Positions 11,005-64,000 of a stretch of DNA of 64,000 bases are shown here, in pieces. Position numbers and translations under genes: made by a program. The notes under the pieces were generated by a model. That model was not told the origin of the DNA. It worked only from the letters and a program-made list of their open reading frames with translations, and did no database searches. Location of the stretch: contig RSEE01000058.1 in the NCBI GenBank assembly GCA_003971905.1, positions 62,001 through 126,000 on the forward strand, written 5' to 3'. This DNA comes from Moniliella sp. 'wahieum'. Lineage: Eukaryota. Position 1 is the first letter of the stretch. Every line of letters begins with the position of its first letter.

Positions 11005-12574
11005 GCTGGGCGGCGTCTGGAAGGGTGGTGGGGGGGAGAGGCGAGTAGGCCGCCGACCGATGGACGATGTTCTGGCGCGGGCAACCGAGCCTTGGAGCTT
11101 GACGCAAGGATGCAGGCGACTGGCATGCGGAAGTCGGGACTGTGTGGTTGCCGAGTTAGATACGCCGATAGAAGGGTGCCGGTGATCATCGATCAGTTTG
11201 ATATATCGCAGAGAAGTTGCTACTCAACACGTCGGCGGCAGCAAGTACCAAGTGTTCTGCTGAAAACACGCTCAACACATAGCATAATGCAGGAACGCGT
11301 AACGCGTAACTAGTAGCCACCGGCTTCTGGCGTCTCCTCGGTCCTCAGTGTACTCAGTACTAGTTACTAGCGTTGCTTGCTACGGCCCCAACGAATTCAA
11401 CCAACGCACATTGTCACACAGCCGCCGCACGCCGGCCACCGTGGATTGCGGCAACTTAGCAAAACACCGTGCACACCCACATATTTGCTCAAAAGCTCTT
11501 GCCTCCACGTTTTTCCTTGCCGCCCACAGTTGCCGCCCACGGGTGGGTCGAGGGTGGGTCGGCCACCCACATATGCAGAGGTGGAAATGCACCATGGATC
11601 ACGCTCGATGCGTCCTGTCCGTGAGCCTCAGGCTGAGGCCTCAGGCTCAGAGTTTCAGGGTCTCGCTGCTCAAAAGCCTCAAAGTCAACACCAGGCACCG
11701 TTTCATGCCATTCCCGGCCATCGGCCATCCCACACGGGGGGTACCGCTACTCCGTAGAGACTATAGTGACTATTTGCCGGTCACTGGGTAACTAGTGACT
11801 AGTGATTTGAGGACTAACAGGGACCACTATAGGGACCAGATATCGATGGCCGGTGACCCGGTGACCGGTGAGCTCACCTATGGCCAGCGGTTAATGCATG
11901 ATCATCGATCAGGACTTCGTGAATTAATGCGAGCCTAGCCAGACGCGGCCCACCCTATAACCTTAGGCCTCTGAAATTGAGGTCTTAGCATCTTGGGCCC
12001 ACACTAGCGCTTGCCACGACGCTTCCACATGAGGTCAGTCTGGGATCTGAGTTAGAGGCGTCTAAGGCCCTAAGGCCCTAAGGCCTAAGCCTAACGCGTA
12101 ACGCCTGACTAATGAATGATTCTCCTCCGCAATGGTGCCGGTGATTACGAGTTACGCTAGTTACGGTTAACCTTTTCTGCGGCCTGAGGGCCTGAGGCCT
12201 GGCCTAAAGCTTGAGGTAGGCTTGAGATCCGAGAGAAACCCTTCAGCCGCTCAAGCTGAAGGCTTTAGCGTTTAACGTGTTTAACATTTAACGCGTTTAA
12301 CGCTCTTAAAGCGACTTTAGCTTTAACGTTTAACCCCTCATCCTCACAGGCTCTCTCACATCTCAGATCAGTTCTCGATCAGTATGATGCACGTTCAACC
12401 TGATTAAGATTAAGGTTCTCGAACATACTGATTACCGATTTACTGATGTTTCGATATCTCACGATCTCATCCGCCTTGGGGCAATGAATATTGAATCCGG
12501 GGCGTCCCAGTCCTCACATGGTCCCTACCGGTACCGGTTTCCTCCGGCAGCTAGACATACCATATCGGCCCAAC

Positions 12575-12753
12575 TGTAACAGTCGGGGCTAAACGAGGGA
12601 CCAAGGTCCTGTCAGAGGCGGGGGGAAAGGCAAGATCGTTCGTGGGAGGAAACAGAAGGCATCAGGCAGAGAACAGAAGCAAAAGGGAAGGGAAGAGCGA
12701 GAGACACAGGATGCGGAATTGGAAATTGGAGCGAGCTTAGTCATTCGGTGACA
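12575..12753 (-). repeat. 3' LTR of the gypsy element (179 bp)
   Basis: Differs from 18090-18267 only by a 2-bp and a 3-bp indel, by eye. Confidence 0.97.
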
Positions 12754-12763
12754 TTGCCCCCTT

Positions 12764-15700
12764 TCAGACCTCACCTCCCCGGCTTCGGAGGAGGCGGGCA
12801 AGGGCAATGCGACGGGAGCGGGAAACAGGCTTGTCGTGGTACATCGCATGGAAACGAACCACCGGGTCGGCGTCGTGGGACATGTCCGCGGCTGGCACCC
12901 ACTCCCGCTCGTGGACCGGGTAGCCTCGGAAATGGACAAAGTACTCGAGACGTCCACCGCGACCCTTACGGCGGGAGTCAAGAACCTCTTGGACCTCGTG
13001 ATGAACCGCCCCATCGTCGGCATACTCGGGAAGGGGGGAGGGGGCTCGACCAAGCGGTTAGAGACCTCGTCGCCTGGGCTATAGGCGCGCAACCGGGAGA
13101 CGTGGAACACATCGTGAATGTGAAGCCAATCAGACAAGCGAACCTGGTACGCAGCACGTCCGACAGCACGGACAATGGGAAAGGGACCAAGGTAGCGATA
13201 ATCCAACCCGTCGGAGGGACGTTGGGTGGATAAGTAGCCATCGCGCCGAACCAAAACCGGTTGATCAACTTCAAAGGTGTCGGCCTCGGTGCGATGCTGA
13301 TCAGCGTAGTGCCGATACCGCTCCTGGGCAGCGGCCAGCGTCTTCCGAGCTACGGCCTGGGCCGAGCGGAGGCCCTCGAGGTACGATGCAGCGTCCGGCA
13401 CGGCCGACGACGCAGCCGCCAACTCACCGCGGGGCGAGTAGCCATACGTAAGGAAAAAGGGGGACGCGCCTGTGCTGGAGTGGGGAGAAGAGTTGTAAGC
13501 AAACTCGGCCGTGGGAAGAAGATCAATCCAGTTTGACTGCTTCTCATCAGGTAGCAACGAAGGTACTGCTCGAGCACCTGGTTCACTCTCTCCGTCTCCC
13601 GTCCGATTGGGGTGTGATACGCCGTGCTGAGGCTCGAGTGGATGCCCAAGTCACTGCACAGGGCCCTCCAAAAGTGGCTCGTAAAGGTAGGACCACGGTC
13701 GCTGACCAAGTCGCGCGGCAACCCATGGTAGCGGAAAACGTGGTGAACAAACTGGTGGGCAAGCCGCGGCGCCGTGTCCGTTGTGTGGGCAGGAATGAAA
13801 TGCGCCATCTTAGTGAACCTGTCCACCACGACCAAGATGGCATCGAACCCCTTCGAGGGTGGAAGCTGGGTGATGTGATCCATCGTTAAATGAGTCCACG
13901 GGCCTTGAGGTGGGGCCAAGGGTTGAAGCAAGCCAGCGGGAGGACGCCGCGGCACTTTGGTCCGCTGACAACGGTCGCAAGAGCGCACATATGCCCACAC
14001 GTCGGCCGACAGGCGGGGCCACCAATACTGCGACCGCACACGCAACCGAGTCTTGTCCCGCCCTTCGTGTCCTGCCAGCGCGGAGTCGTGGCCTGGAAAA
14101 GGACAGCCGCGCGGAGAGGGGCATCGGGGGGGACATAGATCTGCTCACCATGCCACAGGAGGCCATCGCGAACGGTAAGAGCATGAGGGGGGGGTCGCGG
14201 GGAGATCGCAACGGCCCAACGGGGGTCGCGGGGCACCAAGTCGCGGATGCGCTGCTGGATCTCGTCGGCCGACAAGCGCGCCACCAACGGCGCGTCGGGC
14301 TGAGTGGACATGAGCTCGAGCACAGCAGCCGAACGCTCAGAGACAGGCTCCAGCAGGGTCTGGGGGCAGCCTCGGCAGGGCGAGAGCCGATGGAAAGATC
14401 GGGGCGACGGGACAAGCCATCAGCGGCAGCATTCTTCGTCCCGGAGCGATACACCATGAGTAACCGGTAGGGCGACAAGGTCTGACGCCACCGGCCCTGC
14501 CGGCGGTTCAGGAGGCGCGGCCGGCGGAAGGTAGCGATCGCCTCGTGGTCCGTAAGCACCTGGACCGTATCGACGCTCTCAACATAGTGGCGCCACACTT
14601 CGACGGCCGCCACAATGGCAAGCACCTCCTTCTCAGACGTGGTATAGTTGAGTTCGGCTGCGACAAGCTTGCGGGAATGGAAGGCGACAGGCCGCCAACG
14701 ACCATGTTCGTCCTGCTGGGCCAGCACGGCACCCAAGGCGGCATCCGATGCGTCAGTCTCAATGCGGAGTGGCCGACTGGGGTCAAAATGGCAAATGACA
14801 TGGGGAGAAGCGAAGGCCCTCTTGAGGTCGTCGAAGGCGCTTTGGCAGGCAGGCGTCCAATCAAACCGCTGTGTCTTGCGGGTGAGGTCGGAAAGGGGTG
14901 CCGAAATGCGGGCATAGGAGCGAATGAAGTGGCGATAGTAATTGGCAAACCCAAGGAACACCTGAACTTGGCGACTGGTCTTGGGCGTCGGCCATGCTTG
15001 GATCGCTTCCACCTTAGCAGGATCCATTCCGATCCCCGTGGGCGAAACGACATAGCCCAAATACTCAGTCTGGGATGTGTGGAACTGGCACTTGTCCGGA
15101 TTAAGGGAAACCTTGCGCGCTGCAGACGCCGCAACACCTCGGCAACATGCTCCTCGTGTGCCTTCTCGTCCGACGAGAATACCAAGATATCGTCCAAATA
15201 TGCCAGCACCGAGACGTCGAGGAGGTCCCGGAGGAGATCATTCATTATGGCTTGGAAAGTGGCGGGCGCGTTACAGAGACCGAACGGCATGACGAGCGAC
15301 TCAAAGTGACCATACCGGGTACGAAAAGCCGTCTTGTACTCATCGCCCTCCTTGACCCTCAAAAGGTTGTACGCCCCACGGAGGTCAAGCTTGGTAAAAA
15401 CGCGAGCCCCGGACAAGCGATCGAGCGAGTCACTAATCAAGGGGAGGGCCATACGATTCTTGATGGTAATGGAGTTGAGAGCACGATAGTCTACACACAG
15501 TCGGAGCGAGCCATCCTTCTTCTTAACAAAGAGAACACCCGCCCCAAACGGCGATTTAGACGGGCGAATGAACCCAGAGGCCAAATTTTCGTCAATCCAA
15601 CGGCCCAGGGCATCCATCTCGCCCGTAGAGAGGGGATAGAGACGAGTGAAGGTGGGAGTAGCGCCGGGCACGAGGTCGATCGAATGGTCGGCCGCACGAT

Positions 15701-16700
15701 GGGTGGGAAGCGTCTTGGCGCCAGACTTGGAGAAGGCATCAAGATAGGCATGGTAGCGGGTAGGCACCGTTTTCCGGACGTGGTCGACATACTCCGGGGT
15801 GTCAAACTCGTCAGGGAACACTGGCTCTGGACCCTCTGCAACGGAAACAGACGAAATGACCAAAGCTGGGTCACTGGGACGGGCAACGCATACCTCGGTG
15901 TGGGGATCGGCGGCCACCTCTCCTTCAAACTGTTCCAAGGAAAGGAGGTCAATCGGCACGCTAGGGGGAAGGGAGGACTGGGAAGGGGTGGTACCGGAGG
16001 GTGAGGAGCGAAGACGCGTACCTTGGGGAGGGGGGGACTGGTTTGAAGGTGGAGGCACAGACTGGTACGGAAGCTGAGAGGGGGACTGCGGCGGATGTGG
16101 GGGGGGGAACTGGTTGGGGAGATGCTGGTGCTGGTGCTGGTGCTGGTGCTGGTGCTGGTGCTGGTGCTGGTGCTGGTGCTGGTGCTGGTGCTGGTGCTGG
16201 TGCTGGTGCTGGTGCTGGCGGGGGCTGGTGCTGGTGCTGGTGCTGGTGCTGGGGTTGGGGTTGGCAATGCTCGCGGCACTGCGGTTTGTCGAAATGCAAA
16301 GTGTGCGAGGGGTAGTCGGTGGAAGGGTTGTGGGCCTCGAGAAAGGGGAGGCCAAGAATCAAGGGATGGTGGAGGGAGGTGAGGAAAAATTCCTCGGTCG
16401 ACACATGCGAGCCGACCGCGACGGATGCCTCCACCGCCCGGGTCACCAGACCCGAAGAGATGGGCGTCCGTCAACTACGCGGACTGACAAGGGCGACTCC
16501 AGCGGATGGGCAAGCAGGCCGTGTCGGTGAGCGAAGACACGATCCATAAAGACGCTGTTGGCACCAGAGTCAATCAGGGCAAGAACCGGGATCGGAGCTG
16601 GGGACGGGGACGAGGACGAAGAACCAGGGCGCAAGTGAACAAGTACCGTGAAAGAACCAGGCGAAGGCCGACTGGGCCCGACGGCCGCCTCAGACAGCAC
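12764..16700 (-). CDS. Gypsy pol polyprotein (protease, RT, RNase H, integrase, chromodomain), frameshifted in this assembly
   Basis: PR: ALIDSGA and [54 protein letters not shown]...[29 protein letters not shown]. Chromodomain: [36 protein letters not shown]. Confidence 0.93.
16123..16252. repeat. Hexamer microsatellite (TGCTGG)16+4 in the PR-RT linker
   Basis: 16 perfect units at 16123-16218 and 4 more at 16229-16252. It reads (QH)n in the RT frame. Confidence 0.95.
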
Positions 16701-17892
16701 CAGCCGTGGAGGAGTCGGACTGTTGAGGCGGGGGCGAGCTGGCAAGCGGGCAGCGGGCGATGCGGTGGTCACGGGAGCCGCAACAGTAGCAGGATCCTTC
16801 CGCCCTGCGCTCCCGATATCGTGCTGCTCTCTCTGTGGCCTGCGCCTCGGCTGCGCTAAGGTCCATGGGCTCGGGTTCGGCCGGCGAGGGCCGAAAAAAC
16901 TGGCTCCCGCTCGGAGCCTGAGAAGCCCTACTAACGCCGCGCATACCCAACGTCTGGGACTCGTCGATATCGATGGCCGCAGTGCGCAGCTGCTCAAACG
17001 ACAGCCGATTGACGTGTGTAGACTCACCACGAGCAGCAAGACCGTCTCGCACCTTGGGTTTCAGCCCATACAGAAAGTCCCAATAGTACTGCTCATGAGG
17101 GGCATTGGGGCTCCAGCATCGCAGCAGACGCACAAATTGAGCGGCATAGTCGGCAGCCGACCCGGTCTGAGTGAGCGCCCGATACTCCACATACGCTGAC
17201 TGCTGCGGGTTACGTTCACCCCATTCGGTCAAAAACGCAGTCCGAAAGGCAGGCCACGACTGGAGGTCAGGGGAGGTGCGCTGAGCCAACGGCAGTTCGG
17301 GCTCCGACCCGTACTGCCGGAGCCACCGAAGCGCCTCGCCTTGCATCAATCCCATGAACCGGTCAATCTTCTCCGCATCGTCGACGTGGCGACCGAGGGC
17401 GACGCGGGCGTAGATCTCAAAGGAAGTAACGACCTCTTCAGCCGAGATGCGGTCACTCTTGCTGGGGTGAGCACTGGAGGACGGACGGAAATGGACAGGC
17501 TCGAACATCTTGAGGTCGCGAGACGCGGGTGCCGGCTGGGACGGGGCGCTCTCGGAGGCGGAAAGGGCGGGGCCTTGCACGTTGGCGGAACCACCGCTAG
17601 CAGCAGCGCGCGCTTGCTCTGCCGTCTGTGAGAGCTGCAGCATCTCAACAGCCGCTGCAGCCTCCGCCCGTTTCTCCTCCAGCATGGCCTCCCCGGAACT
17701 GAGTGTGGGCGCGATCGACTCGAATCTTCTCGGCCTCGTGGGCATTGTCGTCGCGAATCTTCTCGGCCTCGTAGGCCCGTTCCTCGCGGAGCTTCTCCGC
17801 TGCAGCCGACGAGCCGCGCGAGCATCATTCAACTCGTCCAGCGCGATTGCAGAAGCGGGGGGTCCAGCCATGGAAGATGGGTCTTGGGCCAT
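16690..17892 (-). CDS. Gypsy gag
   Basis: Retrotransposon-gag-like ALRW...WPAFRTAFLTEW...LTQTGSAADYAAQF...FLYGLKPKVR, then EPMDLS and a CCHC knuckle (CYCCGSRDHRIARC). The start ATG is assumed (MAQDP). Confidence 0.88.
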   Translation of the reverse strand: MAQDPSSMAGPPASAIALDELNDARAARRLQRRSSARNGPTRPRRFATTMPTRPRRFESIAPTLSSGEAMLEEKRAEAAAAVEMLQLSQTAEQARAAASGGSANVQGPALSASESAPSQPAPASRDLKMFEPVHFRPSSSAHPSKSDRISAEEVVTSFEIYARVALGRHVDDAEKIDRFMGLMQGEALRWLRQYGSEPELPLAQRTSPDLQSWPAFRTAFLTEWGERNPQQSAYVEYRALTQTGSAADYAAQFVRLLRCWSPNAPHEQYYWDFLYGLKPKVRDGLAARGESTHVNRLSFEQLRTAAIDIDESQTLGMRGVSRASQAPSGSQFFRPSPAEPEPMDLSAAEAQATERAARYRERRAEGSCYCCGSRDHRIARCPLASSPPPQQSDSSTAGAV

Positions 17893-18089
17893 CGGAGCGG
17901 CGGGGGTGTACCATTCTGCCTCCTCGCCACCGCCAGCACCGCCGCCATCGCCGCCATCATCCGAGGCATCCAATGCGTAACGGCCACTGCGGCGCACGGG
18001 GGGGTTACTGGTAGGGTTGCTGAGATTCTGCTGGTCGGGGTCGCGGACATCTTGGTCGGGCTCGTCTGATTGGGGTTGACGAACGATAA

Positions 18090-18267
18090 TGTAACAGTCG
18101 GGGCTAAACGAGGGAGACCAAGGTCCTGTCAGAGGCGGGGGGAAAGGCAAGATCGTTCGTGGGAGGAAACAGAAGGCATCAAGAGAACAGAAGCAAAAGG
18201 GAAGGGAAGAGCGAGAGACACAGGATGCGGAATTGGAAATTGGAGCGAGCTTAGTCATTCGGTGACA
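18090..18267 (-). repeat. 5' LTR of the gypsy element (178 bp)
   Basis: Direct repeat of 12575-12753, followed on the minus strand by the PBS ATCGTTCGT (18087-18079). Confidence 0.97.
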
Positions 18268-19424
18268 CCAACATCTTGAAGTCTCGGGACGCGGTATGCC
18301 CCGGTATATGCCCTGGTGTGCCCTCTGCAAACCTTCAGCACATCAGCAAATGTCTTTGATCGAAGCTCTTATATTTTTGCGACACGTATAGAAGGCCACA
18401 ATAAGTACAGGTAAATAGGTATCACGTGCATCACAGACGTCACATGCGTCACTCGGCACACGGAAGCACCACGCGGCACCCTGGGGGCTATGCGACCCAC
18501 AGGCCATGTCAGCGCATCCGCGCCATCTGTGCATCAGTAGGCCTGAGCCTTAGGGCCATAGGCCATAGGCCCTCAGGCCTCAGGCCTCGGGAGCCGACGC
18601 AGAAGGCATACACAATCCAAGACAGGAGACATGAGACTGGGGATTGTGGATTGGTCCGGAAGGGAAGAGGCAATGTGGCATTGGGCCTTTTTGTTATTTA
18701 CTGGATCGATTGGTAAAGGCTCCCTTTGATGGTAGCAGCGGCAGCGCGGAGAGCAATTCGCAGAAGAACGGTGATGATCGATGATCGGTGATCTCTGACG
18801 ATAGCGGGGGAACCGGGAACGTCCGGACTGGTCCGGACGCACAGACGGTGGACCCACAACCCACCGGAGCCCACAGGTCGTACCAGTTCCTTGCTGAGTA
18901 CTTTGAGTGTACCGAGGTACTGATGGTACTAGTACTCGTCATAAACCGTGACGCATGCACGATGGAGTTAGGTTGAGCAATCTCTCCATCCTGTAGTGCA
19001 TGATGGATGACGATGACGTGTATACTGATGCGCATCCTCCCTCTTATCCACCCGGATACTCCGCGGCACCCTCGGCTAGATATCTTCCATTCACCTTCTC
19101 CTTCAGCATATACCAGCCTATAAGTGCCTTTGACAAACCATCATGAGCCTCACCTTGAGGATAATTGCCCTTGTAGTATCATCATTTAGTCTACTCACAA
19201 ACCTTGAAGATGGAGGACAGGGATATCGTTGCGGTGTTTTGAGCCAGAACGTGTGGGTCGTGCGTTTGTGGCCATGGTCCCTTCAGCTAGTCCCTCCCCA
19301 GGCCTGAGGGGCCGGTCTATATACTAACTGATGTTCTCTCGCCTCTGTTGTGTTCCTCGTTCTGCAGTCCACAGTCCCGTGGTGACTTGCAGCTTGATGC
19401 TCCTCTGTAGAGGTTATCGCGGTT

Positions 19425-19545
19425 ATCGTTCGTGAGGGAAAAGCAAGAGCAGAGGACATGGTACGAAGTGGAAAAGAAAGAGGTGGAGCGAGACGCTCGA
19501 GACGAAGAAATTGGAAATGGGAGCGATATCAGCCAAACTATGGCA
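19425..19545 (-). mobile_element. Truncated LTR of a sister gypsy family (U3 part)
   Basis: Closely matches the solo LTR over about 43422-43542 (shared GAGGACATGGT, GCGAGACGCTCGAGACGAAGAAATT, TCAGCCAAACTATG). Confidence 0.85.
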
Positions 19546-20575: not shown

Positions 20576-20629
20576 TCCATATCATTGACAGAGCTTAAGG
20601 CTGGGACAGGGAAACGCTACGCCTGAACC
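20576..20629 (-). repeat. Dispersed repeat; inverted copy of 41951-42005
   Basis: Its reverse complement matches 41951-42005 with about 6 substitutions and 1 indel in 55 bp. Core: CCCTGTCCCAGCCTTAAGCTCT. Confidence 0.8.
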
Positions 20630-21533: not shown

Positions 21534-21535
21534 AA

Positions 21536-21802: not shown

Positions 21803-23486
21803 GCTTGTCTGTGTCTACCTATATACTTCGTAGGCTGCACGCGGCGCGTACATGCTGTACCTCTCCAAAATATGGCAATTTTGAGCCTCAAGTCCAACCC
21901 GAACAGATCTATGGCTTGATGGGTTTGCATTGCTATATGAATGTCACTTGGACGAGATGCCGAAGAAAAGGATTGATCCCCGTGTTGCCAGGGTATCCAG
22001 CTACGACAAGTGCCATTTCGCATACGGGATGGACAACCACTGCAGTTTAAGCACATGCTGTCTCCTTGTCCCTGGCCTACTTTCATCAATCATCCAGCAT
22101 TGCGTAGGCTTCGCTAGTTTGGTTGTGCACAATAGGTGGTGGCATCTTCGGGACGAGTGGGATCATTTTGTGCTCACCTGCAACAGCGAGCAAACCTCGT
22201 AACCATGATGCATGCTGTATGATGTGGTAACTGAGATATCCCAGCCTCCGGTTCGGCCCTTCTCGGATAGAACTGTACTCCACGCGCCACGAGCCTCTGT
22301 TTTACGGCCTGACCGTGCAGGGTGAAGGTGCCAGGCTTTGGTTGGCATATCAGCTAAGAGAGACGATTATAAGGTTTTTTGTCGGGACGGCTTCCTTCGT
22401 GCAATTCCGTAAAATAAAGAGATCATGCAGATCATGACAGAATGTGCCGGACAAGAACATCATGCTCCTGCTGGAGAAAGGGGCATGAGTTGCGAAAGTG
22501 TGGTCGCCATTTTGGAGGGGACGCTAAGGCAAATTTGGTACTAATCGGTGTTGTTCTCTGTGACCAAATAGGTGAAAAGGAAAGCATTCCTATTAGGACG
22601 AGTAAGGTATGTATCGCGTTGGACTATTGGACACAGGACGCATTCGGCCTTACCACACATCAGAGAGTTGAGGGGGGTTTTATTGACGAAGAGAGGAGAA
22701 AACAATGAGAAGGGATCATTTTGGGTAGCGAGAGATGATGGTATGGTAAACAAACAAGGTCTGTTGACGAGACCGTTTATTGTTTTCCTACTTTTAAGGC
22801 GCAAAAGCTAGCTACACCCGCCCCCCGTCGCCTCTATGGTCTCCCATGCTATACAAAGAAAAACGTCAGTCGCTACCAACATCAACTCTTCAACGAGCGA
22901 AGAAGGAGGTGGCGAAGCTTCGCCTCAATGCAGTGCCACTCCACAGCAGAAAGCGCCCACGAAGGGCAATGCCATTTAACTTGAGCACATGACCCTCCAT
23001 TTGGTTCTCGTGCCTTGTCCAAGACTCACTCTGACCGCTGTCTTTTCCTCTCGAAGCACGTACCCACGACCTCGGTCACTTCTTCTCTCTGTTCGATCCC
23101 AGTCTCACTTCGTAGCTTGAGGGTGACGCAGGGTGTTATTCAGTTGATTCAAAGTCGCAGTCGCGGAGGAGTGACGCACGCTTCCGTGCCAAGTTTGGTA
23201 ATGCTGTGTAGGAACGCCGTCAGCAGATGCCCCGGGGCCCGCCTGCCTTTCCAAACGTCACGTCTCGCCTATATATTCTACGCAGAAAATTGGAGAAAAA
23301 AAGAGAGCGAAAGGGTGTATCCTGTCGGACCCCGTCTCCCAACTAGACATCCTCCAATCTTGATCCCATCCCATCTCAAGCAACCCAGAGCTGGGTGGAG
23401 ATGCCTCCATAGATCCACCATGGATCATGATCTCGCAGTAAAAAGATCGAACATTGATAGTATACTTCTTGGGAATGCACCTATGG

Positions 23487-39860: not shown

Positions 39861-39888
39861 TATAGTCCCCCGATTGGTGCAAAACACC

Positions 39889-42005: not shown

Positions 42006-43361
42006 CGAACTATAGAGAATGCCTGTGTGGTGAATATATTCTGTGGTCCCCGTTCATCCCCTTCTTCGCTATCTTTTGCCAGAGAGGCGACGATACAGAT
42101 GACACAAACCAAGAAGTGTACCAGCTCATTACAACAGTGCCTTGTACTCCCCTGAGGCTGTGGCTGATTGAGAGGTCGGTCAAGAAAATTCGCTCCTATA
42201 CAGCAGTCGAAACAGAGGCGGATGATTATGGTGAGATCAATGATGAGAGAGGTTACTACTTAATAGGGAGGGAAGACACATGATCTTGACAATGGACAAA
42301 CGGTGGCGGTATCGTTCGCTCAGGCCAAAAGCAAATCTATTACAGAGGCCATTACCGCTGTTTAGCAAGTCTCTCGCCAGATTGCCCACGCCAGTCACAA
42401 TAAGAAGAACGGTGGTGCACACACTTAGAATGAGAGGGAACGACACAGATTGAAAAGAATCATTCATTATCCGCCTCTCATCCTGGGAGGGAACGGCACC
42501 CGTAGGCAAATGGCGCTTTCGACTGGGACAGGTTCTTTTGTCAGAGAGGCACCCCCTCCCAATCAGACCGGGGCGACAGCCCCCTCTCTAGTAGGCTCCA
42601 TATGGCACGATGCTATATACTGCACATTGCTTTACCGCCGGCGCTACTCTTGATAGGTGACGGGGAGTAACCGAGCCTGGTCGAGCGCATCCTCTCCCCT
42701 TTTGTCTCCCTTACCTGGTTAGACCGACGTCAAAACTAGGCCGGCTTGTCTCGGAACGTTGAACGCGTTGAGCACGTTAAGCAAACCTATGCGCTCTGTT
42801 GTGTCCAATTTAAACGGAACTTGTTCCCATCGATCTATGCAACTAGTAGTAGGATCAAGTTCTTTTCCTACGGCCGAGGTGGCGCCTGCATGAGCTTCTC
42901 TGAGTCCATGTTTTAATGATCCTATTCGTCAATTTGGTCTCTTTGGCTTTGGACGCGAGTGTGCTCTAACTTGAGCCTCCGGATCTGGACGTCAGTTTCC
43001 TGATCTGAGCGTTCCTTCTCGTTGTGATGCTCCCCTCATGCCTTTTTTGCGTTTCTGCCTGAGGGCGGAGATCCTTTCCTTTACTTGGGCGGTTCTGATT
43101 TTGACTGTTCCTGTTCCTGGCTGAGTGTAGAGACATTTCCTTACTTGGTTTGCGCTCCTTTCTGAGAGCCACTTATCTCGATTCCGCCCCTCTTTCGTCG
43201 TCGTGTTTTGTCTATTCGTTTGTACCTGCCTATATATGGCCCTTGATCCGCGCATGATCCTTTTCCCCTCTACTGAATGGTCATTCTCCGTCTTTTTTCT
43301 TCTCATTTCGTCTTGCTTTTCGTCATCTTCTTCGTCATCTTCGTCGTCGTTTTCATTCGTC

Positions 43362-43542
43362 TGTCACAGTCGGGGCTAAGGCGAGGGAGACCAGGATCGG
43401 ACTAGGCCAAGGGGTGTAGCAATCGTTCGTGGGGAAGAAGCAAGAACAGAGGACATGGTGCGAAGTGGAAGGAACAGGGACGAAGCGAGACGCTCGAGAC
43501 GAAGAAATTAGAAATGGGAGCGAGATCAGCCAAACTATGACA
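43362..43542 (-). mobile_element. Solo LTR (181 bp) of a sister gypsy family, with 5-bp TSD
   Basis: TGTCA...TGACA termini. TSD TCGTC at 43357-43361 and 43543-43547. It shares ACAGTCGGGGCTAA, CGAGGGAGACCA, ATCGTTCGTGGG and GGAGCGAG with the full-length element's LTR. Confidence 0.93.
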
Positions 43543-46500: not shown

Positions 46501-47206
46501 GAACTCACTGAGTACCGAATGCCAATAGCCCATGGGCTTTTCTGTTGGTCATCGAACAGTGTCATTCATGTCTTCATTGAATATTGAGTAGTGCACTATA
46601 CAGCCACTAAAGCCTAGTCACTGTGGCATGCGAATGTGACATGTGACAGATCACTGATTTTCATCATACGTCACGGGTCACGCGTCATAGCCACCAAGCA
46701 TCCCGGAAGAACCCTCACTTGATTGAAAATGGGTAATCGAAAATGGATCTAATCAGCACTCAGTAACTGAGTACTCACAGTAATTCAGTGGTGGCGGCGT
46801 GGGGGCTTGGGAGCTGAGGCGCAGCTGTAAAACTGGGCGGAGGCCCGCGGAGGCACTTGTCAGGCCTCAGGCCAGGTTTGAGGCCACTCCCTGAGGCCCA
46901 AATAAGACTGAGCTTCACAGGTAAGGCGCTGAGCCGCTCAGGCTGAGGGCGCTGAGGGCTCCCGTCAACGCTCAGCGACCGCCTAAGCCTCAGATCCTGG
47001 AGGCTATCTTGCAACGGGTGGCGCAACAGGGCCCACGTGCATCCTCTGTTAAGCTTTAGCAGGGCCTTGGACCGAACCGAGATACGCCAATGTTGTCCGA
47101 CTCAGTGCGCAGTCTCGACTAGCCTAGTAGCTAGTAGAGGGAGCAGCGACTAATAGTGAGCTAGTGACCTGACCTTGCGCTGCCCAGCAGGCCCTGTATT
47201 CAGCAA

Positions 47207-47420
47207 TGTTGGGACCCGTGGTCCCGTACTTAGGCCAAGGTGCCTCATCACCCTTCACCCCTGATTTGTCCTCCCAAGCCTCCACGTGTATACTCAGGCT
47301 TGTTTGAACCCCTGTCTCTAGGTGGCACAAGGCTTAGACCTCAACCACCACCATCGCGATTGCATTGCTCTACATCTCCAGAGGTTCTTCACCCAATCCC
47401 TTGGGTTCCTCCGTCTTACA
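47207..47420 (+). repeat. 5' LTR of the copia element (214 bp)
   Basis: Direct repeat of 52545-52757, with about 6 small indels and 1 substitution by eye. Confidence 0.97.
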
Positions 47421-47608
47421 GAGTTACAATCCTCTTGACGCTCATCAGCCCTGAGCCTTCCATTCACCCCTCTTCCACCCAACACCTACCTCCCCCTGGC
47501 AGGCTCTCAGGCTCAGGAGTCTTGGTTCAACTCCTCAACCCATACTTCGCCAACTGCCGCCGCAGAAGAGAGCAACACACTCCGTCGGAGTTGACCACGT
47601 CTCCCCCG

Positions 47609-50600
47609 ATGACACCATCACGTGAGTATACTCCTACACCTCAGCCCACCCCCGTGGGCACCGACAACACCGCGAACGAGGTCGCCACCCTCGCCGACCG
47701 CATTCGCGACATGTTCAAATTGTTTCCCGACACGTCACCCTCAAACAGCTACAGGATACTGGTAGCAACCTTGGGTACAGCGACAAGACGACCACAGAAG
47801 CCATTGTCATGTTATCATGTGAGAATCCACCCAAGACTAGCAAGAACGAAGGTGCCATATCGTCAACTCCGGCCATCGACGACAACCCGTGGGCCTTGAC
47901 TCCCGACAAGCTCCTCCGCAGTGCCACTCGCACCAACGTGCCGCACGAGCGTTTCCACAACAACAGCTCGTTTTGGTTGTGGACCCGGATCTTTCTCCCT
48001 CGTATCCAGATTATCCTGGAGCGCGTGAGCATCGGAACAGGGCAAGGCCCTGGACGGGTATAACGCATTACTGGACGCTCATTAGCCAACATTCTACTCC
48101 CGTGGATAGACTCCGACGTCGTCCAGCAGATCACCGGCGATGGCACGCCGGCTCTAGGGTCTGCATACTATCATGCTCTGCGTGATTTGTACGGCACCGT
48201 TTCAGACACTGAGGTCTGTAATATCCTCATAAAGATTCTCACCCTCAAAAGGGCACCAAGTCGGGCCGCCAATACCTGAATGAGTTCACTGTGGCGGTAA
48301 ACCAGTAAGAGATGACGTCCAAGTCCAAGCTGGACGAGATTGTCTAGCAAAGATGCTACGGAACGGCGTCATGATCAGGGGTGGTTGCACCTCCATCGTA
48401 ACAGCAGCTACGCCGAATTGCGCCGAGCAGTGAGCGAACTCGAAGGCTCCACTACGGTAGTACCTCCAGTTCAAGCCCAATTCCTTCCAGTACGACCCCT
48501 TCGGAAGCCACGTCGCACAGCCAAACAAACAGTACGGCTAAAGGCAGCGGACAAGGCCGAGGTGGCAGCGGATACAGAGGAGTCACCGTGGGGCCAAACG
48601 TGGCGGCCATGTTGGCCGGCGGCTACGACAGCCCAGACCACCTCATGTGCCATGCAGTAACCCTATGGCGCTCACTATACACCACCCGAGTCAGCTACAT
48701 CGACTGAAACGGAGTCTGTCGGTCCACAAACCCCTCCTCACCCCTACTCGGACAGCGCGGGAGGCCTTCCTCCAGCCAATCTCCCTGCGCAACACGATTC
48801 AGGTGCGAGACCATCGTATTCAATGAACGAAGTGCGTTATCAATCTTCGTCCCCACCGCGAGCCCATAGCAGTGGCAAACGGACAGATCGCCATACACTG
48901 AAGGCATTGGCACCATCTCTATGTACATTCAAACCCAGAACGGAGCCCCTATCCGCATCCACCTACCCGGCAGCTTGTACTGCCCCACCTTCCCGACCAA
49001 CCTGCTCAGCGCTTACCATCTATCTGTCGCAGGCATTGGCAGCTGGATCCTCCAGGTGGCCATGGTCTCTCGGACGACACGGCGAACCTTTTCGTCTCGC
49101 CGCCGACTCAAGCTATTCCCTTACTCTGGCGCCCAATACGACAGCCACAGCCAACAGCGCCACTTCGCTACTCAACCTTGATGCAACCCTGGTCAAGGTG
49201 AAAAACGCCCACATCCGATGGAATCATGCACCCCTAGATCAACTTTCATCCCTCACGTCGGACGACCCAGCATTCGAACGGGTCAACAGTGGCGACATCG
49301 CTTTAGTCCGGTCCTCGTGGCACTGTGCACCATGCGCATTAAGCAGAGCCACTGCCCCACCCCACGCCGCGACTGGACGCCCAATCCGATCCATTCGCCC
49401 TTTCTCTCTCCTCCACCTCGACGTCCTTGACATATCCCGCCAAGGCGGCGGGGGTCATACTTACGCCCTTATCATTGTCGACGACTTTACGCGGTATACC
49501 TGGACGCTACCCCTGGTGTCCAAGGGTGATGCCACAGCCGAACTTCAAGCCTTCATCCGGCGCGAGCATCGCCAACATCCCGACCGCCCCCTTCAAGCGG
49601 TCCGCTCTGACAATGCGCCTGAACTCACCACCGCAATGGACGAGTTTTACTGCGAACTGGGAGTAGTGAGCGAGCGCACCAATCCTGGCGAAAGTGCGTC
49701 CAATGGGGTCGCCGAACGCGCCATAAGATCGATTACGGATCGCGCTCGACTCATGGTAGTCGCAAACCGATTGATTCCCGACGAGTGGTGGGAACACAGC
49801 TTATTGGCAGCCACGTATGCACACAACCAGTCGCCGCCGAAGGCACTGGGTGGAGACAGCCGATTTGTCCGGTACCATGGCTTCAAACCCTCCCTTCGCA
49901 TGCGCGGTTTTGGCACCCTTGCTTACCTGCACCTACCGCCCAACCAACGCGAGGGCGGCAAACTTGGTCCGCGGGCGGTCCCAGCTATGTTGGTGGGTTA
50001 CGGGCACGGCCGCGGGTCGAAGGGGTGGCTCTTTGCCATCCACCAGGATGACGGCCAAGTTGGATTCCGTTGGAAAAAGCCGTCCACCTGGACACATGTC
50101 CCGTACACCACCGAGTATCCCACGCACTTCCATCTGGACCCCCTTGTTCCTTCTGGTGGCGGAGATGTGCGGGGGGCGGAGAGATGGGTGCTGGTGGGAA
50201 GTCAGGCAGCTCCCCCCCCGGCGTGTGCGTTTTGCGATAGATGAACTGACCCGCGATACTAATGGTAAGAAAGAAATGCCCCCATGGAAAAGAAAATTAA
50301 AAGAACGAAAAACAGAGGCACATCGCCCGGCTCAAGCCAACGAAAATGAGAATTCAGAGCCTGGCCCCACTCCCACCAACTCCAACCCCCCACATGTACC
50401 CCCCAACCTGTTGCATCTGACCCCGCAGGCATGGCACAACGCCAGGCAAAGCAAGCCGAAGAAAATGAAACTATCACAGAAGATGCCGTTGACACTGGCC
50501 ACCAAGTCCTGCCTCCCCTCCCTCTTCCGCTCCACTTCCCCTCCCTCCCCCCTCATCCCCTCCTCTCCCCCACCGACACGCTCGCCCCCGTGACCGTGCC

Positions 50601-52479
50601 CCTGACCGATACAGCGTCCCCGCACTCGTGCGTCGCAATCCCGTTCGCCAAGCGCGTATCAACGCTCCACCCCTCGACCTGTCCATTCCAGCCAACGACA
50701 ATTGCGCGATGGCACTTTTCCCTGCTCGTCAACAAGGCCCCTAGCATCTTTGGCAACCCGGCCGCTCTCCGCCCTAGGAATGCAGGCTTTGGTGAGTATT
50801 TTCGGACCACCGCGCCGGACACTCCATGCCCGCTTCGGAGCCAAGCACCCCCCATCGCACTCGCAATCGAATCCGCGGCAAGTGACACCGAGGTCATACT
50901 GACCACCGATGGGGTCCCGGTGGCCCCCAAGAACATCAAGAAGTTGGTGGGTCACCCTGCCTTTGATGGCGTACTCGAGGCAATGCGCCTCGAGCTTCGG
51001 CGTTTTGACGAGCGTGACGTGAAGGAAGTTGTACCCATCCCCCCAGGGATCAAACCCCTTCCCGGCATGTGGGTCTAGGTACTAAGACGGATGCGGATGC
51101 TAACTTCCTCAAGTACCGTGCCCGCTACGTTGTGGGAGGGCACCGGCAAGTTCCTGGCACATGGGCGAAATCTTTTGCTCCTGCCGTTCGTACTGCTGCC
51201 GTCAACACGCTAATTGCGTTGGCCGAAGCTGATGGCCTCCACTTATTTCTGCCGATGTGGAAGCTGCCTACCTCTATGCCGATATCAACGAGCTCGTCTA
51301 TGTTCGACCACCCCCCTTCTTCCCAGAAGCGCCCGGTCATTGCTGGAGACTCAAGAAAAGTCTCTATGGCCTGCACCAGAGCGGGGCCAACTTTGGAGAT
51401 TGGCTCCGCACTTTCCTTTGCGACCGACTCCACTTCACTAGCCTAAAATCAGAGCCTTGCCTGTTCATACGTCGCACCGAACCTCTTGGCCTGATCCTAA
51501 TCGCCGTCCACACTGACGACTTTTTGGTCGCGTGTCGGTCCCAAGAAGCGTATGATGAATTCTTAGTGGAATTAAGGCGCAGCATCCAAATTAAGTCCAA
51601 CGGCCCCTACGTTTCCATCTCGGCTGCCAATACGACCGTATCGATGGACGACTGTACATCAGCCAACCCAAATTCATCGCTGAGACGCTTGCCGCGCATG
51701 ACATATCACCTCACCGGCCCCGCTACCTTCCAATCGGCCACCAACTTCCGCCTCCCAAGCGACCCGAACACGAAAAGCGTGCCACTCGAGACGAGCACCG
51801 TGCCTACCGTTCTATTGTCGGATCCAGCTTGTGGGCGGCTCGTATGTCCCGGCCTGATGCCCTCTTTGCGGCTACCTTTTAGCGCGGTTTATGGACGACC
51901 CGTCCGCCGCCCACCGACGCGCAGCGGAGGACCTATTACGTTTCTTCGCCGGTACGTCTGACTACTCTTTGTGCCTCACACCCAACGATCTCGCCCTCTA
52001 CTCGAGCTGCACACCGATGCCTCCTTTGCATCAGACAAGAGCAACTCTCACTCCGTTTCGGGCCATGTTGTTTTTGTTTTCGGTGTGCCTGTATCCTGGG
52101 GCTCCAAGTCCCAAATCAAGGTGTGAGCAACACAGCAGCATCTGAATACCTAGCCATGGGAGATGGCCTTCGAGATGCTCTATTCATTCGCAACATACTG
52201 TTTGAACTTGGTGTCTGCAAGGCTAATCACCCGATTGAGCTCTTTGTTGACAACACCGCTGCCAAAGCGTTGGCCGAAAAGCTCGGCAGCCTAGGCAAAA
52301 TACGGGAGATTGACGTCTCGTACCACGAGGTGCGGGAACGCATCCACCGAGGCGAAATTAAAGTCCACTACACTCCAGGTGCACACCATCTCCCTGACTG
52401 GTTCACCAAACCTCTTTCTCTTCCCAAGATCATTTCTGCGCGTAACAATTTCGATTTGGCTTCTCTTTCTTCGCGCTGA
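47609..52479 (+). CDS. Copia gag-pol polyprotein, frameshifted in this assembly
   Basis: IN: HIRWNH...CAPC, LLHLDV, IVDDFTRYTW, VRSDNAPE, SNGVAERA. RT: KYRARYV, AYLYADI-E-VYV, LKKSLYGLHQSG, VHTDD. RH: ASEYLAM, VDNTAA, PDWFTKPL. Confidence 0.93.
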
Positions 52480-52544
52480 TCCCCTTTCTACTTTTCTTTT
52501 GTTGATGGCCAACGGGCTTCTTTCGTTCCCTTGGCCCGGGGGGG

Positions 52545-52757
52545 TGTTGGGACCCGTGGTCCCGTACTTAGGCCAAGGGCCTCATCACCCTTCACCCCTG
52601 ATTTGTCCTCCGAAGCCTCCACGTGTATACTCAGGCTTGTTGAACCCCTGTCTCTAGGTGTGGCACAAGGCTTAGACCTAACCACCACCATCGCGATTGC
52701 ATTGCTCTACATTCCAGAGGTTCTTCACCCAATCCCTTGGGTTCCTCCGGTCTTACA
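52545..52757 (+). repeat. 3' LTR of the copia element (213 bp)
   Basis: Direct repeat of 47207-47420. Confidence 0.97.
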
Positions 52758-53583: not shown

Positions 53584-53642
53584 TCATGCATCATGTATCA
53601 TGCATCATGCATCATGCATCATGCATCGTGTATCATGCATCA
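53584..53642. repeat. Heptamer tandem repeat (TCATGCA)~8
   Basis: Eight units in register, two of them carrying substitutions. It is the longest of the palindromic heptamer arrays. Confidence 0.92.
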
Positions 53643-55823: not shown

Positions 55824-58800
55824 TGACAAACTGCTTACTGGTCCTTTTCCTTTCCCTTTTCCTTTTCCGTTTCCTTTTCCTTGTTCCTCTGTCGCACCCC
55901 AGTTACCTATTGGCTTGCCCTGATATATGATCACCCTATATATTTCTGTCCTCCCCTCCTCGCTCGCCCCTCAAACCACTCCCCTGCGTGCTGGCCTTCG
56001 GCTTGCGGCTTTGTCTTCATTCCCTTGGAGATGCCGCCTTACTGTCCTAGCTGCCCCCTCCCTTCTACCTCTTTCGGCTCCTACAACTCAGTTTCGACGT
56101 TGGCAGGGCGAGGGGAGAACTCTATGAGAACTCAAGGCAAGGGGGGGCGGGGGAGCTGAATACTTCTGTTGCTGTTTGGGGGGCCAACGGCCACCAGCGC
56201 ACGTTCACACGTTCACACGCGAAAGCGCATCTAAACATTACTTCTACGCTCTCGCGCTCATCATGATGGCCTGCGTGTGGGTGTTGCTGTTATCAGGTAC
56301 TGGTATAGGGAGCGTGCCGAGACCACATACTCGTACGGCCATGCCGATGCTCATGAACGATTGACTGCATGGCTGGCCGTCGACGTCTCAGCTGAGACGC
56401 TGAGGCTGAGTGCTCCTGACACATAGCTTGCTCACTGTGGGGTTTCTGCGGAGGCATGTGGGACAAAGTGAGGCCTGAGGGCCTGGGGAAGCGCTAAGCT
56501 GAGCTCGCGTCGTCCCCGCCGTCCCCACGCTGGCTAGTTGACTAGGACTAGTCGAGAGACTACGCTTGCGCAGGTCGGTCGGGGCTAGGGGGTGGCTGAA
56601 AGCTTAATACCCAGGCTCAAACTACAGCTGGCTAGCAGCGTGCACCATGCGGTTGTTGGCGAGTGTTGCGGTGGGTGCACTTTGATCGATCATCGATCCA
56701 TGCTCGGTGACCGGTGACCGGTGACCCCGTGGGGGCTAGGCACTAGGGGGGGGGTGGGGCGGTCCCATACATGCCCCCGCGAAGCCCGGTACAACTGACT
56801 AGTGGCTAGGATATAGTGCGTATGACATCACAGTGAAGCTTGAAGCTGGAGGTCACGCTCACGACTTCTCAAGTGCCCTTGTTCCCAGGCGCAGCCTTGC
56901 GGGCATCTCGAGATTCCCATCTACTCTACCAGATCCATTGTCCGCCCGCGCTCCCCAGTTCGACATTTGAGTTTTGGACGTTAGACTGACCAACCCTCGG
57001 CCTCATTAATCATTTCGGCCCCCGCGCGATGGGGGGCATCGATGACGATGACTATAGCGAGGCGGAAAGAGACGCAGCTGTATGTGGACACGGATGCATT
57101 TCGGTGCTGCTGTGGCTCTCGCGGGGGGCCGGTGAGTTCACCTGCTTGTGGAATATGGAATGCTTGTGCGTGGAGGCCGGAGGGGACGCGTGTTGCATGT
57201 TGTCGCACGTCGTACGGGTAATGTATGTATCGGATGCATGACTCAATGATGAACAATTCGCAGGAAAGCGTTTTTGGTTAGAGCTTTTTTATTCGTCGGT
57301 CTCGGAGTCTGCCGACCCGGCCGCGCCGACCAGCAACTGCCGAACGCAGCGGAGCATCGGCCGAAAGAATCCTCAAGACACCCCCCACACTAGGGCCGTA
57401 TACTAGGCGGGGAGACGCTGCTCCACCTACATAGCCTTGTTCCAAAAGGTAGTCTCGTGTCTCTTTCAATGTCTCAGGCATCGATCATCCCATCATCGAT
57501 CCCTCTCCCCGTCGGGTCCCGAGGGACTATAGGGAGCACCATCCCCGCCTTGCATCTTCCTCTCTCCCCTTTCTCCTCCGTCGCTTCGGTCGTGTCGGCC
57601 ATTGCATGAAACCTATGTATAGTAGCCCTCCGATTCCGGAGGCGACGATCGATGATCGGTGAAATACCAGCGTCTTGTGGGTGTGTGTGTTGGTCAAAAC
57701 GGTAGGGATTTTTTACACAACACAACACTATTATATACGGTGTTGGGGAACTTGATTGGCTGTGGCTAGATATAGCTGACTATAGTGAGTGGCGCATACA
57801 GATGCATACCACGTGCTTTTTTGTTTGTACCAGGAGAACCCCATTGTTTACCAACGGTAACTTCTCCAGAACAAAAAGATCAAGCGCCTAAAAAAGTCAC
57901 GAAAAGTGAAGAGCGGACGCCAGTCTCCGTCGACCCAACTCGTAGCATACTCAGTGGGGAAGATGGTCGGATGACCGCGCGACAGTACTCAGTACTCAGT
58001 GTTAATAGACGCTGTTCTATCTTCCTCCCAGGTTCAAGCTTCAAGCTTCAAGCTTCACTAGCACGATTCGAACACCGAACCATCTCTACTCCATACAGAA
58101 ATTCAAAACGGGGTGTGCACCACTCTTTACATCAGCATCGCGTAAGCCACCGGGAGCGCAGCCAGCCACGCCAGCCAGCGCGTATCGGTGATATTGTTTT
58201 CCAGCGTGGATGGGTTCCAGCGTGGAATGGTGGCTACGGTGGCTACGGTGGCTAAGGTGGCGACGCAGCACCAAGCTGGGGCGAAGCCCCAGCCGACCGG
58301 GCCGTAGGCCCGGTGGTCCTCCTCGTTGAATTTATCGGACAACCTACTTTTGTGAGCTGAAGCTCTGAAGTCCCCTATAGCCAACAGGCCTTTTCAGTTG
58401 CCGAGGCACGAGCAGAAAAAGTTATGTAGTAGTTTTCCCTCTGCCCCTTAGCGTCGCGTCAGACCTCATCGATGGCCGATCATTTATGGTCACACGCGTC
58501 ACATAACGCCGTTGAGCTCTGTCTGTGCCTTTGTGTTTCACCCCATTCTTGCTGCCGGTAAGACTGGTGTACGTTGCGAAGACTTACTCATAAACGACCT
58601 GCAGCGTACTAAGGAGATCCCGAGAGACGCAAAGAAGATGAGACAACGGGGGATCCTCGATCCGAGGACTATAATAAGTAGGCGAGACGAGGAAGAAATA
58701 TTTGTTTTTTTTGTGTGGTTTCTGCCGATGCCCGTTTGCTCCTCCGGCCACAGGCCACCTCAGGCCGGCCTTAGGCTTGAAGTGGTAAAAGCTTAAGAAG

Positions 58801-63183: not shown

Positions 63184-63565
63184 TTAAAGACCAGGCAGGT
63201 TCTGGCCCGTGAGCGACTTGAAGCCCGACTCGATACCGTTGCTGATCTCCTGGGTCTGGTTCTGGCTCAGGTCGTGGCCGAGGACCTGCTGCTCGCCGTA
63301 CTCAACAGCCTTGTCAACGTAGTCGTTGGTGAAGCCACCCTGCTGGCCCTGCTGCTGGCCTTGCTGGCCTTGCTGGTTGCCCTGGGGCTGTTGCTGTTGC
63401 TGGATTGGGATGGAGAGGACTGGAAGATGGGAGATGGGGTTAGCTTTTCGTACTTCAAGGAGTATGCCTTGTGTGGGGCCATGCATCGTGCCTCAGGGAC
63501 GCATCCGCAATCGGTGACGGCAGGAGAGAAGAGGGGGAAAGGTGCAAAATAAGACGTACGTCCAT
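63184..63565 (-). CDS. Small (~73 aa) Q/G-rich hydrophilic protein with a 6-nt first coding exon
   Basis: ATG GAC (63565-63560), then intron 63400-63559 (GTACGT...GCTAAC...CAG), then QQQQPQGNQQGQQGQQQGQQGGFTNDYVDKAVEYGEQQVLGHDL...EISNGIESGFKSLTGQNLPGL*. Confidence 0.72.
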
Positions 63566-63627
63566 GATGTTAGAGTTGACAGTAACGTTGGTGGGGGTAA
63601 TCAAGAAGGAGGAGGAAGACAGAGGCG

Positions 63628-63636
63628 TTTTATATA
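63628..63636 (-). promoter_or_regulatory. TATA box of the small Q/G-rich gene
   Basis: TATATAAAA on the minus strand about 62 nt upstream of the ATG, followed by a CT-rich tract. Confidence 0.6.
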
Positions 63637-64000
63637 CCCGCCAGACCAGCAGTTTCCGCTGTGGATGGAAGGATGCACATGGCACGTGTGCAGTGGACGG
63701 ATAAGGAACGGCGTTCGGGTGGGTGGATGGCTTGGCTTGCCACAGACAGGCGCTCGCCTTGCTCGCCACACCGAACTGCTCGAATGTTCGTTGGACGGAC
63801 ATGGTGCAGGCACAGCACTGGTACAGTCGCCTGCCTCGCCCTGGCTGCGTATGCGTGATGCTGATGCATGATGCACCGCTTTCCAGTTGCGAGTGACTAA
63901 GTGACTCGTCCCTTGCCCGCGCGTCACTAATCATGGTCGCTTTGATTCACCCCCATAACAGTGGCATGCGACACCTTCATTGTCATGTATCATGCATGTC

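Follow-up and report, generated by a model that had tools for sequence, protein, structure and literature searches.

Palindromic period-7 arrays in Moniliella sp. 'wahieum' as probable excision footprints of a flank-hairpin DNA transposon

Flank hairpins, palindromic (P-) nucleotides and small losses of flanking bases make up the footprint chemistry of hAT, Transib, MULE and RAG (PMC5873905; PMC5499845). Hairpins are opened 1–4 nt 3' of the tip, which yields overhangs of 2–8 nt (PMC2175297), and in fungi the opening is carried out by Pso2 or other enzymes (PMC5873905). Target duplications of 7 bp are uncommon; however, among basidiomycetes, "hAT7" families with 7-bp duplications have recently been described from rusts, and Kyakuja elements, also with 7-bp duplications, are known from Laccaria (PMC12730594). 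The present study concerns a stretch of 64,000 nt from Moniliella sp. 'wahieum' (assembly GCA_003971905.1, contig RSEE01000058.1, positions 62,001 to 126,000 of the forward strand; hereafter the window, with position 1 as its first base), in which short arrays with a period of 7 bp recur, mostly built from a palindromic hexamer plus one spacer base. We consider that these arrays are probably the excision footprints of a cut-and-paste DNA transposon that forms flank hairpins, duplicates a 7-bp target nnTNAnn and has its hairpins opened 2 nt from the tip.

Perfect tandem repeats with a period of 7 bp and at least two units (at least 14 bp) occur 45 times in the window, where 3–4 are expected. 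In Markov controls, with 30 simulations for each order, the mean number was 3.5 for order 1, 3.0 for order 3 and 4.3 for order 5, and no simulation exceeded 8. This comparison with background had been named beforehand as a check on an earlier reading of the DNA made from its letters alone (the sequence-only reading), and the claimed enrichment is borne out; all 11 arrays quoted in that reading were also recovered at the positions it gave. A hexamer palindrome plus one base makes up 29 of the 45 repeats. The hexamers had been described as uniformly of the form A-NNNN-T, which holds for 28 of the 29, the one exception being TAGCTA+G, and where at least eight different palindromes had been counted there are 14 different 4-bp cores in use.

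The informative centre of these units is the triplet T-N-A (TNA) around the 'spacer' base and not the A-NNNN-T hexamer. TNA recurs at distance 7, as the sequence-only reading had noticed, in 144 cases, compared with 27–60 at distances 3–6 and 8, and among all 16 X-N-Y classes it is the only one with a strong recurrence at this distance; a second TNA peak lies at distance 9 (82 cases). There are 53 odd palindromes with a TNA centre and 5-nt arms, where 12.8 would be expected. No such enrichment is seen around ANT, CNG or GNC, where counts match expectation, nor among even palindromes classed by their central pair. Flank-matched units have TNA at their centre 62 times (0.3 expected), compared with 0–7 times for each of the other 15 centre classes, and some of the latter are other registers of the same arrays.

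Two TNAs with the same middle base are separated by 4 nt in 144 cases (33 expected) and by a 4-bp palindrome in 72 cases (1.9 expected). When the two middle bases are complementary, a palindrome separates them in only 5 cases (1.2 expected), and the TNA has therefore been duplicated directly, not inverted. Beyond TNA itself the inferred targets show little preference: C or G occupies the middle position in 81% of them, compared with 72% of all TNAs in the window, and 31 of 69 show some extra complementarity next to the TNA. Arrays had been taken as the usual form of the pattern, which is true of the minority of sites only, as 56 of the 69 chains have two TNAs and represent single events; the 13 longer chains comprise seven with three TNAs and six with four.

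The palindromic core is a copy of its own flank. In the 52 units that have just two TNAs, the core, written xyy'x', was compared with the two bases lying outside either TNA; it mirrors the right flank alone in 19 units and the left alone in 15, a further 8 units mirror both flanks, and 10 mirror neither, the class into which chance would place about 88%. Thus 42 of the 52 minimal units mirror one or both flanks, as P-nucleotides do, and the 14 cores vary from site to site, each set by the neighbouring bases. A core contributed by fixed transposon termini (a 3-bp TNA duplication with 2+2 terminal nucleotides) was also considered and is ruled out, as the core mirrors the flank. Identity runs at offset 7 are most commonly 5 and 6 bases long (103 and 51 cases, against 40 and 10 expected). 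A search that was blind to TNA, for 5 bp followed by two inverted nucleotides and the same 5 bp, placed TNA at the predicted position in 45 of 69 and 38 of 63 matches, and where exact 5-base runs enclose an inverted dinucleotide TNA lies at the outer end in 6 of 9 cases of the right type and 7 of 9 of the left type. A minimal one-sided event of this kind is TCACC GG TCACC at 6109–6120, with five bases repeated around two inverted ones.

A cycle of insertion and excision would produce such sites in the following manner. An element would integrate at a 7-bp staggered cut centred on T-N-A (target nnTNAnn), which would place the 7-mer pqTNAxy on both sides of it. Excision would seal each flank as a blunt ('even') hairpin, and a host nuclease opening each hairpin 2 nt 3' of its tip would leave 4-nt self-complementary overhangs, xyy'x' on the left and q'p'pq on the right. 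End joining would mostly keep one overhang whole and drop the other, giving pqTNA-xyy'x'-TNAxy or its mirror image with a net gain of 7 bp, and the palindrome would consist of P-nucleotides copying one flank. The new TNA would now lie in a perfect odd palindrome, where the next insertion and excision would leave two fully complementary overhangs; each repeat event at such a TNA would add exactly one 7-bp unit with the same middle base, and arrays would grow in this way. We infer a transposon as the maker of the scars, together with its superfamily and the nuclease that opens the hairpins.

This scheme was examined by reading the bases between two TNAs of the same N as the first a bases of the left overhang followed by the last b bases of the right, with 20 simulations for comparison. 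The classes (a,b) in which one overhang is whole and the other lost, (4,0) and (0,4), occur 45 and 38 times, each against 0.1 expected. Joints with partial loss or retention of the ends form a spectrum around them: (4,2) was found 8 times (0 expected), (2,4) 5 times (0.1), (3,3) 6 times (0), (1,4) 5 times (0), (4,1) 3 times (0) and (4,4) once (0). With ANT, CNG or GNC as the centre, no cell with a+b above 4 holds more than one case, and the a+b=4 diagonal has small counts of up to 10. If sites are sorted exclusively, 21 palindromic sites fit every class with a+b=4; class (4,0) has 17 sites to itself and shares 7 others with (3,1), and class (0,4) has 12 to itself and shares 5 others with (1,3). 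A plain 7-bp duplication that lacks inverted bases is rare (one exclusive case), and TNATNA, the product of a 3-bp duplication or of simple fill-in, is not enriched, with 45 found and 46 expected.

The key evidence for what we read as a 7-bp target duplication comes from eight sites of class (4,2) or (2,4), together with one site at which both overhangs appear to be retained. In the eight non-palindromic sites the same 7-mer, always of the form nnTNAnn, stands on both sides of two nucleotides that are the reverse complement of the adjoining two. The first, with TTTAACG on both sides of CG (12287–12302), would represent a 7-bp duplication plus two P-nucleotides; the same arrangement is seen with GATCATG around CA (22421–22436), AATCATC around GA (38565–38580), GCTCACC around GG (41762–41777) and GGTGATG around CA (46148–46163). 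AGTTACG around CT (12150–12165) belongs to the mirror class, in which the P-nucleotides would derive from the right copy, and the remaining two sites have GATGAAA around TC (44198–44213) and GCTGAGG around GC (46942–46957). At 38477–38494 the sequence GT TAA GCGC ACGT TAA GC contains both 4-nt palindromic overhangs, a gain of 11 bp. A direct duplication of the target is thus found on both sides of the joint, as the full 7-mer in the eight sites and as its 5-bp part in the common class. The weaker period-9 signal is explained by the same eight sites and belongs to the same process.

Other geometries of duplication and hairpin were also considered. A 5-bp asymmetric duplication with two P-nucleotides fits the main class and was replaced by the symmetric 7-bp model given the sites with two complete 7-mers. 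When a hairpin with an odd apex, of the Ac type, was combined by hand with an 8-bp duplication, it could give neither even palindromes nor the same-N rule, and an odd-centred model cannot yield the classes (4,2), (2,4) and (4,4). Stepwise removal of insertions that conform to the 7-bp model gave 86 intact events in the window, of which 63 added 7 bp, 9 added 8 bp, 13 added 9 bp and one added 11 bp (641 bp in total); ten simulated sequences gave 0–4 events, with about one expected by chance. The sequence itself shows how long the duplication is, that it is centred on TNA, that inverted nucleotides copy the flank, and what spectrum of joint variants occurs.

The target consensus of hAT elements is nTnnnnAn, and the target found here is nnTnAnn; PIF/Harbinger elements have the central three-base target TWA, which is of the T-N-A type, and the excision of P-type elements leaves remnants of the transposon ends. 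Similar to the present sites are the footprints of the hAT element Ac/Ds in plants, budding yeast and Candida albicans, which likewise have the target duplication on both sides of the joint, short inverted P-nucleotides and small deletions, with a few predominant joint types accompanied by rarer ones, and which are explained by flank hairpins that host nucleases open and end joining resolves (PMC5873905). They differ in that the duplication is 8 bp, compared with 7 bp here, and in that Ac/Ds footprints were recovered from a reporter, whereas those in the window are natural scars at about one per kb. In the length of its duplication the present system matches only the hAT7 group among hAT elements (PMC12730594). 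The hAT7 elements of rust fungi also share with it a basidiomycete host and membership in a superfamily that forms flank hairpins (PMC12730594; PMC5499845), but their hosts are Pucciniomycotina, whereas the fungus studied here is nearest to Tilletiaria, of the Ustilaginomycotina; hAT7 consensus sequences have been published, and the text and supplement examined contain neither a target consensus nor footprints (PMC12730594).

Outside the hAT superfamily, V(D)J coding joints (RAG; Artemis:DNA-PKcs) resemble the present sites: the flank hairpins are blunt and even, the opening lies a few nt 3' of the tip, and self-complementary 3' overhangs and P-nucleotides are the outcome (PMC2175297). They differ in lacking a target duplication, in the nuclease and in belonging to the vertebrate immune system. 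Galileo, an element of the P superfamily from Drosophila, has a 7-bp duplication with the odd-palindromic consensus GTAGTAC, whose centre is A-N-T and not T-N-A (PMC2775673). An origin from the P superfamily does not fit, as the inserted bases vary by site and copy the flank instead of preserving element ends. The Kyakuja elements of Laccaria (KDZ) share the basidiomycete host and the 7-bp duplication; they have CA..TG termini that lack inverted repeats, and neither the chemistry of excision nor its footprints are described in the text examined (PMC12730594). PIF/Harbinger elements, which duplicate 3 bp (PMC12730594), do not fit the 7-bp direct repeats or the absence of a TNATNA excess.

Several observations weigh against the excision-footprint reading, the main gap being that the element itself was not found in the window; for a transposon that stays out of sight, the density of scars is very high. 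Of 1789 pairs of identical nnTNAnn 7-mers tested, none encloses inverted termini, and this search, like one for inverted termini bounded by TNA, gave only matches of one array to another. Pfam searches of 218 open reading frames (ORFs) of the window detected no DNA-transposase domain, and no hAT dimerisation or BED domain. These comprised 96 ORFs of at least 130 aa and 112 ORFs of 60–129 aa from six non-coding stretches, in neither of which a transposase family was found, and another 10, which had retrotransposon domains only. The palindromes here are even (xy|y'x'), whereas those of Ac/Ds are centred on the complement of the base adjoining the element (PMC5873905), and a standard hAT element is for this reason a poor fit. 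Finally, 16 of the 45 period-7 repeats are not of the palindrome-plus-one type (about 4 expected), and TNA is present in only 3 of these; the 13 that lack it therefore indicate that some other process, whether slippage or the use of near-cognate targets, acts in addition to the footprints.

Examples of such repeats consist of a 4-bp palindrome and a three-base spacer other than TNA, namely GGCC+ATA (18554–18571), GGCC+ATC (11715–11729), GGCC+GAA (34256–34274), CATG+TCG (29847–29863) and ACGT+TCC (45975–45992), and the footprint model leaves them unexplained, barring near-cognate targets or slippage of mutated units. Two period-8 arrays, at 12062–12089 (TAA+GGCC+C) and 44817–44855 (TCA+G+GCGC), have a unit that fits a +8 joint variant, and its repetition needs either recurrent identical joints or slippage.

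On the comparisons made above we would not assign the agent to hAT, as the even palindromes appear to resemble hairpins of the RAG type. A tentative and more specific possibility is that the scars were made by a hairpin-forming transposon family so far undescribed, or by a transposase kept by the host, with a 7-bp nnTNAnn target, blunt hairpins like those of RAG and Transib, and a long history of jumping into intergenic DNA. In the open literature, as far as its text was available and with subscription journals lying outside, we found no description of TNA-centred 7-bp palindromic scars or arrays in fungi. On our reading the footprints are of a known kind, and what sets them apart here is how dense and regular they are and that palindromic microsatellites are born from them.

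The age structure of the scars bears on how the process has run. Patterns of 12 nt that conform to the scheme occur 83 times in perfect form (0.15 expected), 112 times with one violation (8.65 expected) and 259 times with two (108 expected), and scars mutated once are thus about as common as intact ones, which suggests long and steady activity, not one burst. Assuming steady state, neutrality, 12 constrained positions per scar and, on a crude split of coding from non-coding sequence, some 22–30 kb of non-coding DNA, we roughly infer an event rate per base of about 3–5% of the per-site substitution rate. On the same rough footing, even an element of low copy number could plausibly jump this often. 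This steadiness, and the lack of any visible element or transposase in the window, would suit a variant in which the same chemistry is exerted by a domesticated hairpin-forming transposase that moves a few small non-coding elements, or by a very low-copy, hyperactive element, so that the scars would record a standing, lineage-specific mutational process and not what an ordinary transposon family left behind. We regard this as unlikely, although it is the strongest of the competing explanations: the window covers only about 64 kb, which an autonomous element of few copies would escape, and a 7-bp duplication still needs something to have been inserted and removed.

Every inserted base copies sequence no more than 7 nt away from the site, some in direct and some in inverted orientation, which together with the lack of a transposon in the window could also point to break repair that involves no transposon, where a nuclease or topoisomerase-like enzyme cuts at TNA and snap-back or templated synthesis takes place during end joining. 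Templated insertion, however, gives variable lengths, whereas 63 of the 86 events are exactly +7 and the rest follow one overhang scheme, and exact 7-mer repeats around two inverted nucleotides are what a target duplication with P-nucleotides would be expected to leave. Products of simple fill-in are also not enriched, neither as TNATNA (45 against 46 expected) nor as plain 7-bp duplications (one case), and we think it rather improbable that the arrays arose in this way. The sequence-only reading had proposed a dedicated mutational process in the form of a fold-back or template-switch error; the dedicated process is upheld, but the evidence fits the insertion and excision of a transposon instead of such an error.

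It is very unlikely that the arrays are hairpin-prone microsatellites that arose and grew by replication slippage. A few longer arrays of up to 8.4 units exist, 13 of the period-7 repeats lack TNA, and period-8 arrays such as CTAAGGCC need the unit-wise amplification of a variant unit, all of which speaks for slippage. On the other hand, 56 of the 69 chains are single events, and the commonest runs of identity at offset 7 are 5–6 bases, less than one unit; nor can slippage produce inverted copies of the flank or the choice of TNA. That ordinary slippage does not suffice to explain period 7, palindromes and A...T ends together had been argued before, and the flank mirroring and TNA specificity now confirm it.

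Equally little probability attaches to the view that the arrays are selected cis-regulatory or chromatin elements, such as binding sites for dimers or a code of cruciforms and hairpins. The loci do cluster in some intergenic regions and many lie upstream of genes. However, each of the 14 cores is set by its local flank, mutated copies are abundant, and about nine loci lie between the convergent 3' ends of two genes (55.8–59.1 kb). Four arrays fold as small hairpins with a TNA loop at −4 to −11 kcal/mol (z-scores −0.5 to −3.0), which is no more than any short palindrome gives. Cut-and-paste elements favour open promoter DNA, and this would give the same clustering. The structural regulatory or chromatin code suggested in the sequence-only reading thus finds no support, the cores being dictated by their flanks, decayed copies being as common as intact ones and folding being weak; the cell may nevertheless make secondary use of the scars. 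An artefact of assembly or sequencing is extremely unlikely, as the pattern is absent from coding segments with a Pfam match and from the two retrotransposons, shows mutational decay and follows a strict flank-dependent rule.

If the excision-footprint reading is true, a compact fungal genome would have excision scars, normally a rare curiosity, as one of its major sources of insertions, and a highly regular one, and there would be a concrete origin for the odd microsatellites of the palindrome-plus-one type with period 7. The target choice, stagger and hairpin geometry of an unseen transposase, and the position at which the host opens its hairpins, could then be read from genome sequence alone, and an element with 7-bp nnTNAnn duplications would be predicted in the complete genome or in a close relative. 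For work on strain history the scars could provide polarised markers, and searches for promoter motifs in these fungi should beware of them. Should the more specific idea of a long-active hairpin-forming family prove right, that family would be a main writer of non-coding sequence, working at a rate that a rough steady-state estimate puts at a few per cent of the substitution rate per site. Palindromic heptamer microsatellites would arise through it where none had existed, and promoters would keep receiving new dyad-symmetric sites.

The window is nuclear basidiomycete DNA, and its gamma-glutamyltranspeptidase (GGT) is, among named proteins, closest to that of Tilletiaria anomala (64% identity). 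Further genes encode an OPT transporter, ribosomal proteins, a cyclin, a secretory lipase, a kinase and a C2H2 factor. Loci of the type TNA / 4-bp palindrome / TNA number 58, of which 57 lie between 11186 and 63871 and the remaining one is at 6109. They are dense at 11.2–12.5, 28.9–30.6, 41.7–47.1, 53.4–53.7, 55.9–58.1 and 61.3–61.7 kb. The earlier view that they are dense upstream of genes is correct for many loci, for example those upstream of the cyclin, lipase, kinase, C2H2 and GGT genes, but the group of about nine at 55.8–59.1 kb lies between the convergent 3' ends of the C2H2 and GGT genes, and 'promoter-specific' is therefore too strong.

A scarcity of the pattern in coding and transposon sequence had also been noted, and indeed none of the 58 loci lies between the long terminal repeats (LTRs) of either retrotransposon or in a Pfam-matched segment. 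However, 19 of the 58 fall in stop-free stretches, 130 codons or longer, for which no family match was found, and one of which is the first part of a long frame that ends in C2H2 fingers, and the division into coding and non-coding DNA is for this reason a rough one. The absence of scars from both retrotransposons is uninformative, as the LTR pairs differ by one substitution and a few 1–3-bp indels: alignment of the LTR pairs and of two repeats resembling solo LTRs for 7-bp events revealed only 1–3-bp indels, and the elements are too young to inform.

In metagenome data, 121 loci (409,064 bases) with three ATCGAT+G units contained 29 other TNA/palindrome/TNA units, a density of 0.07 per kb compared with about 0.9 per kb in the window. 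The search recovered no relative with the same habit and serves as a negative control on unrelated DNA only.

The ATCGAT+G array at 41681–41711, which is (GATGATC)x4.4 or a TGA-TCGA lattice, has a second copy at 45706–45732, of which 27 bases are identical to 41683–41709. These two arrays, 4 kb apart, bracket a stretch that has no ORF of at least 130 codons, and neither inverted termini nor a coding remnant was found between them. The ATGCAT+C array at 53584–53642 has 8.4 units, among them point-mutated ones. AAGCTT+C is found at 44551–44581, adjoining a TCA-ATAT-TCA unit, and with 3.6 units at 58033–58057, and AAGCTT+G with two units at 45318–45334. Three units each are present of ACCGGT+G (56705–56726) and ACTAGT+A (29741–29761). 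The AGGCCT+C array at 18571–18588 follows directly on the TNA-less GGCCATA repeat that ends at 18571, and AGTACT+C and AACGTT+G are located at 57983–58000 and 46486–46504, respectively.

The region richest in scars is 41844–47206 with 15 loci. It extends over 5.4 kb in which ORFs of 130 codons or more are lacking and 43 shorter ones gave no Pfam match, an unusual length for a stretch of this kind in a compact fungal genome. Adjoining it on the plus strand is a copia-type LTR retrotransposon (47207–52757), whose LTRs of about 215 bp are 96% identical; they differ by one substitution and several 1–2-bp indels, part of which could be sequencing errors. A Ty3-type LTR retrotransposon on the minus strand (12575–18267) looks intact, with gag, reverse transcriptase, RNase H and the SH3 domain of the integrase. 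Its LTRs of about 179 bp differ by one 2-bp and one 3-bp indel, the element is flanked by the 5-bp duplication CCAAC, and a hexamer repeat, (TGCTGG)x22, occupies 16123–16252 within the gag-side ORF. Dispersed repeats of about 120 bp with 87–89% identity resemble the Ty3-type LTR (43422–43539 and 19425–19542; 41951–42005 and, inverted, 20576–20629) and are probably remnants of solo LTRs. A perfect tandem duplication with a 43-bp unit, present in 2.1 copies, was also found at 38272–38360.

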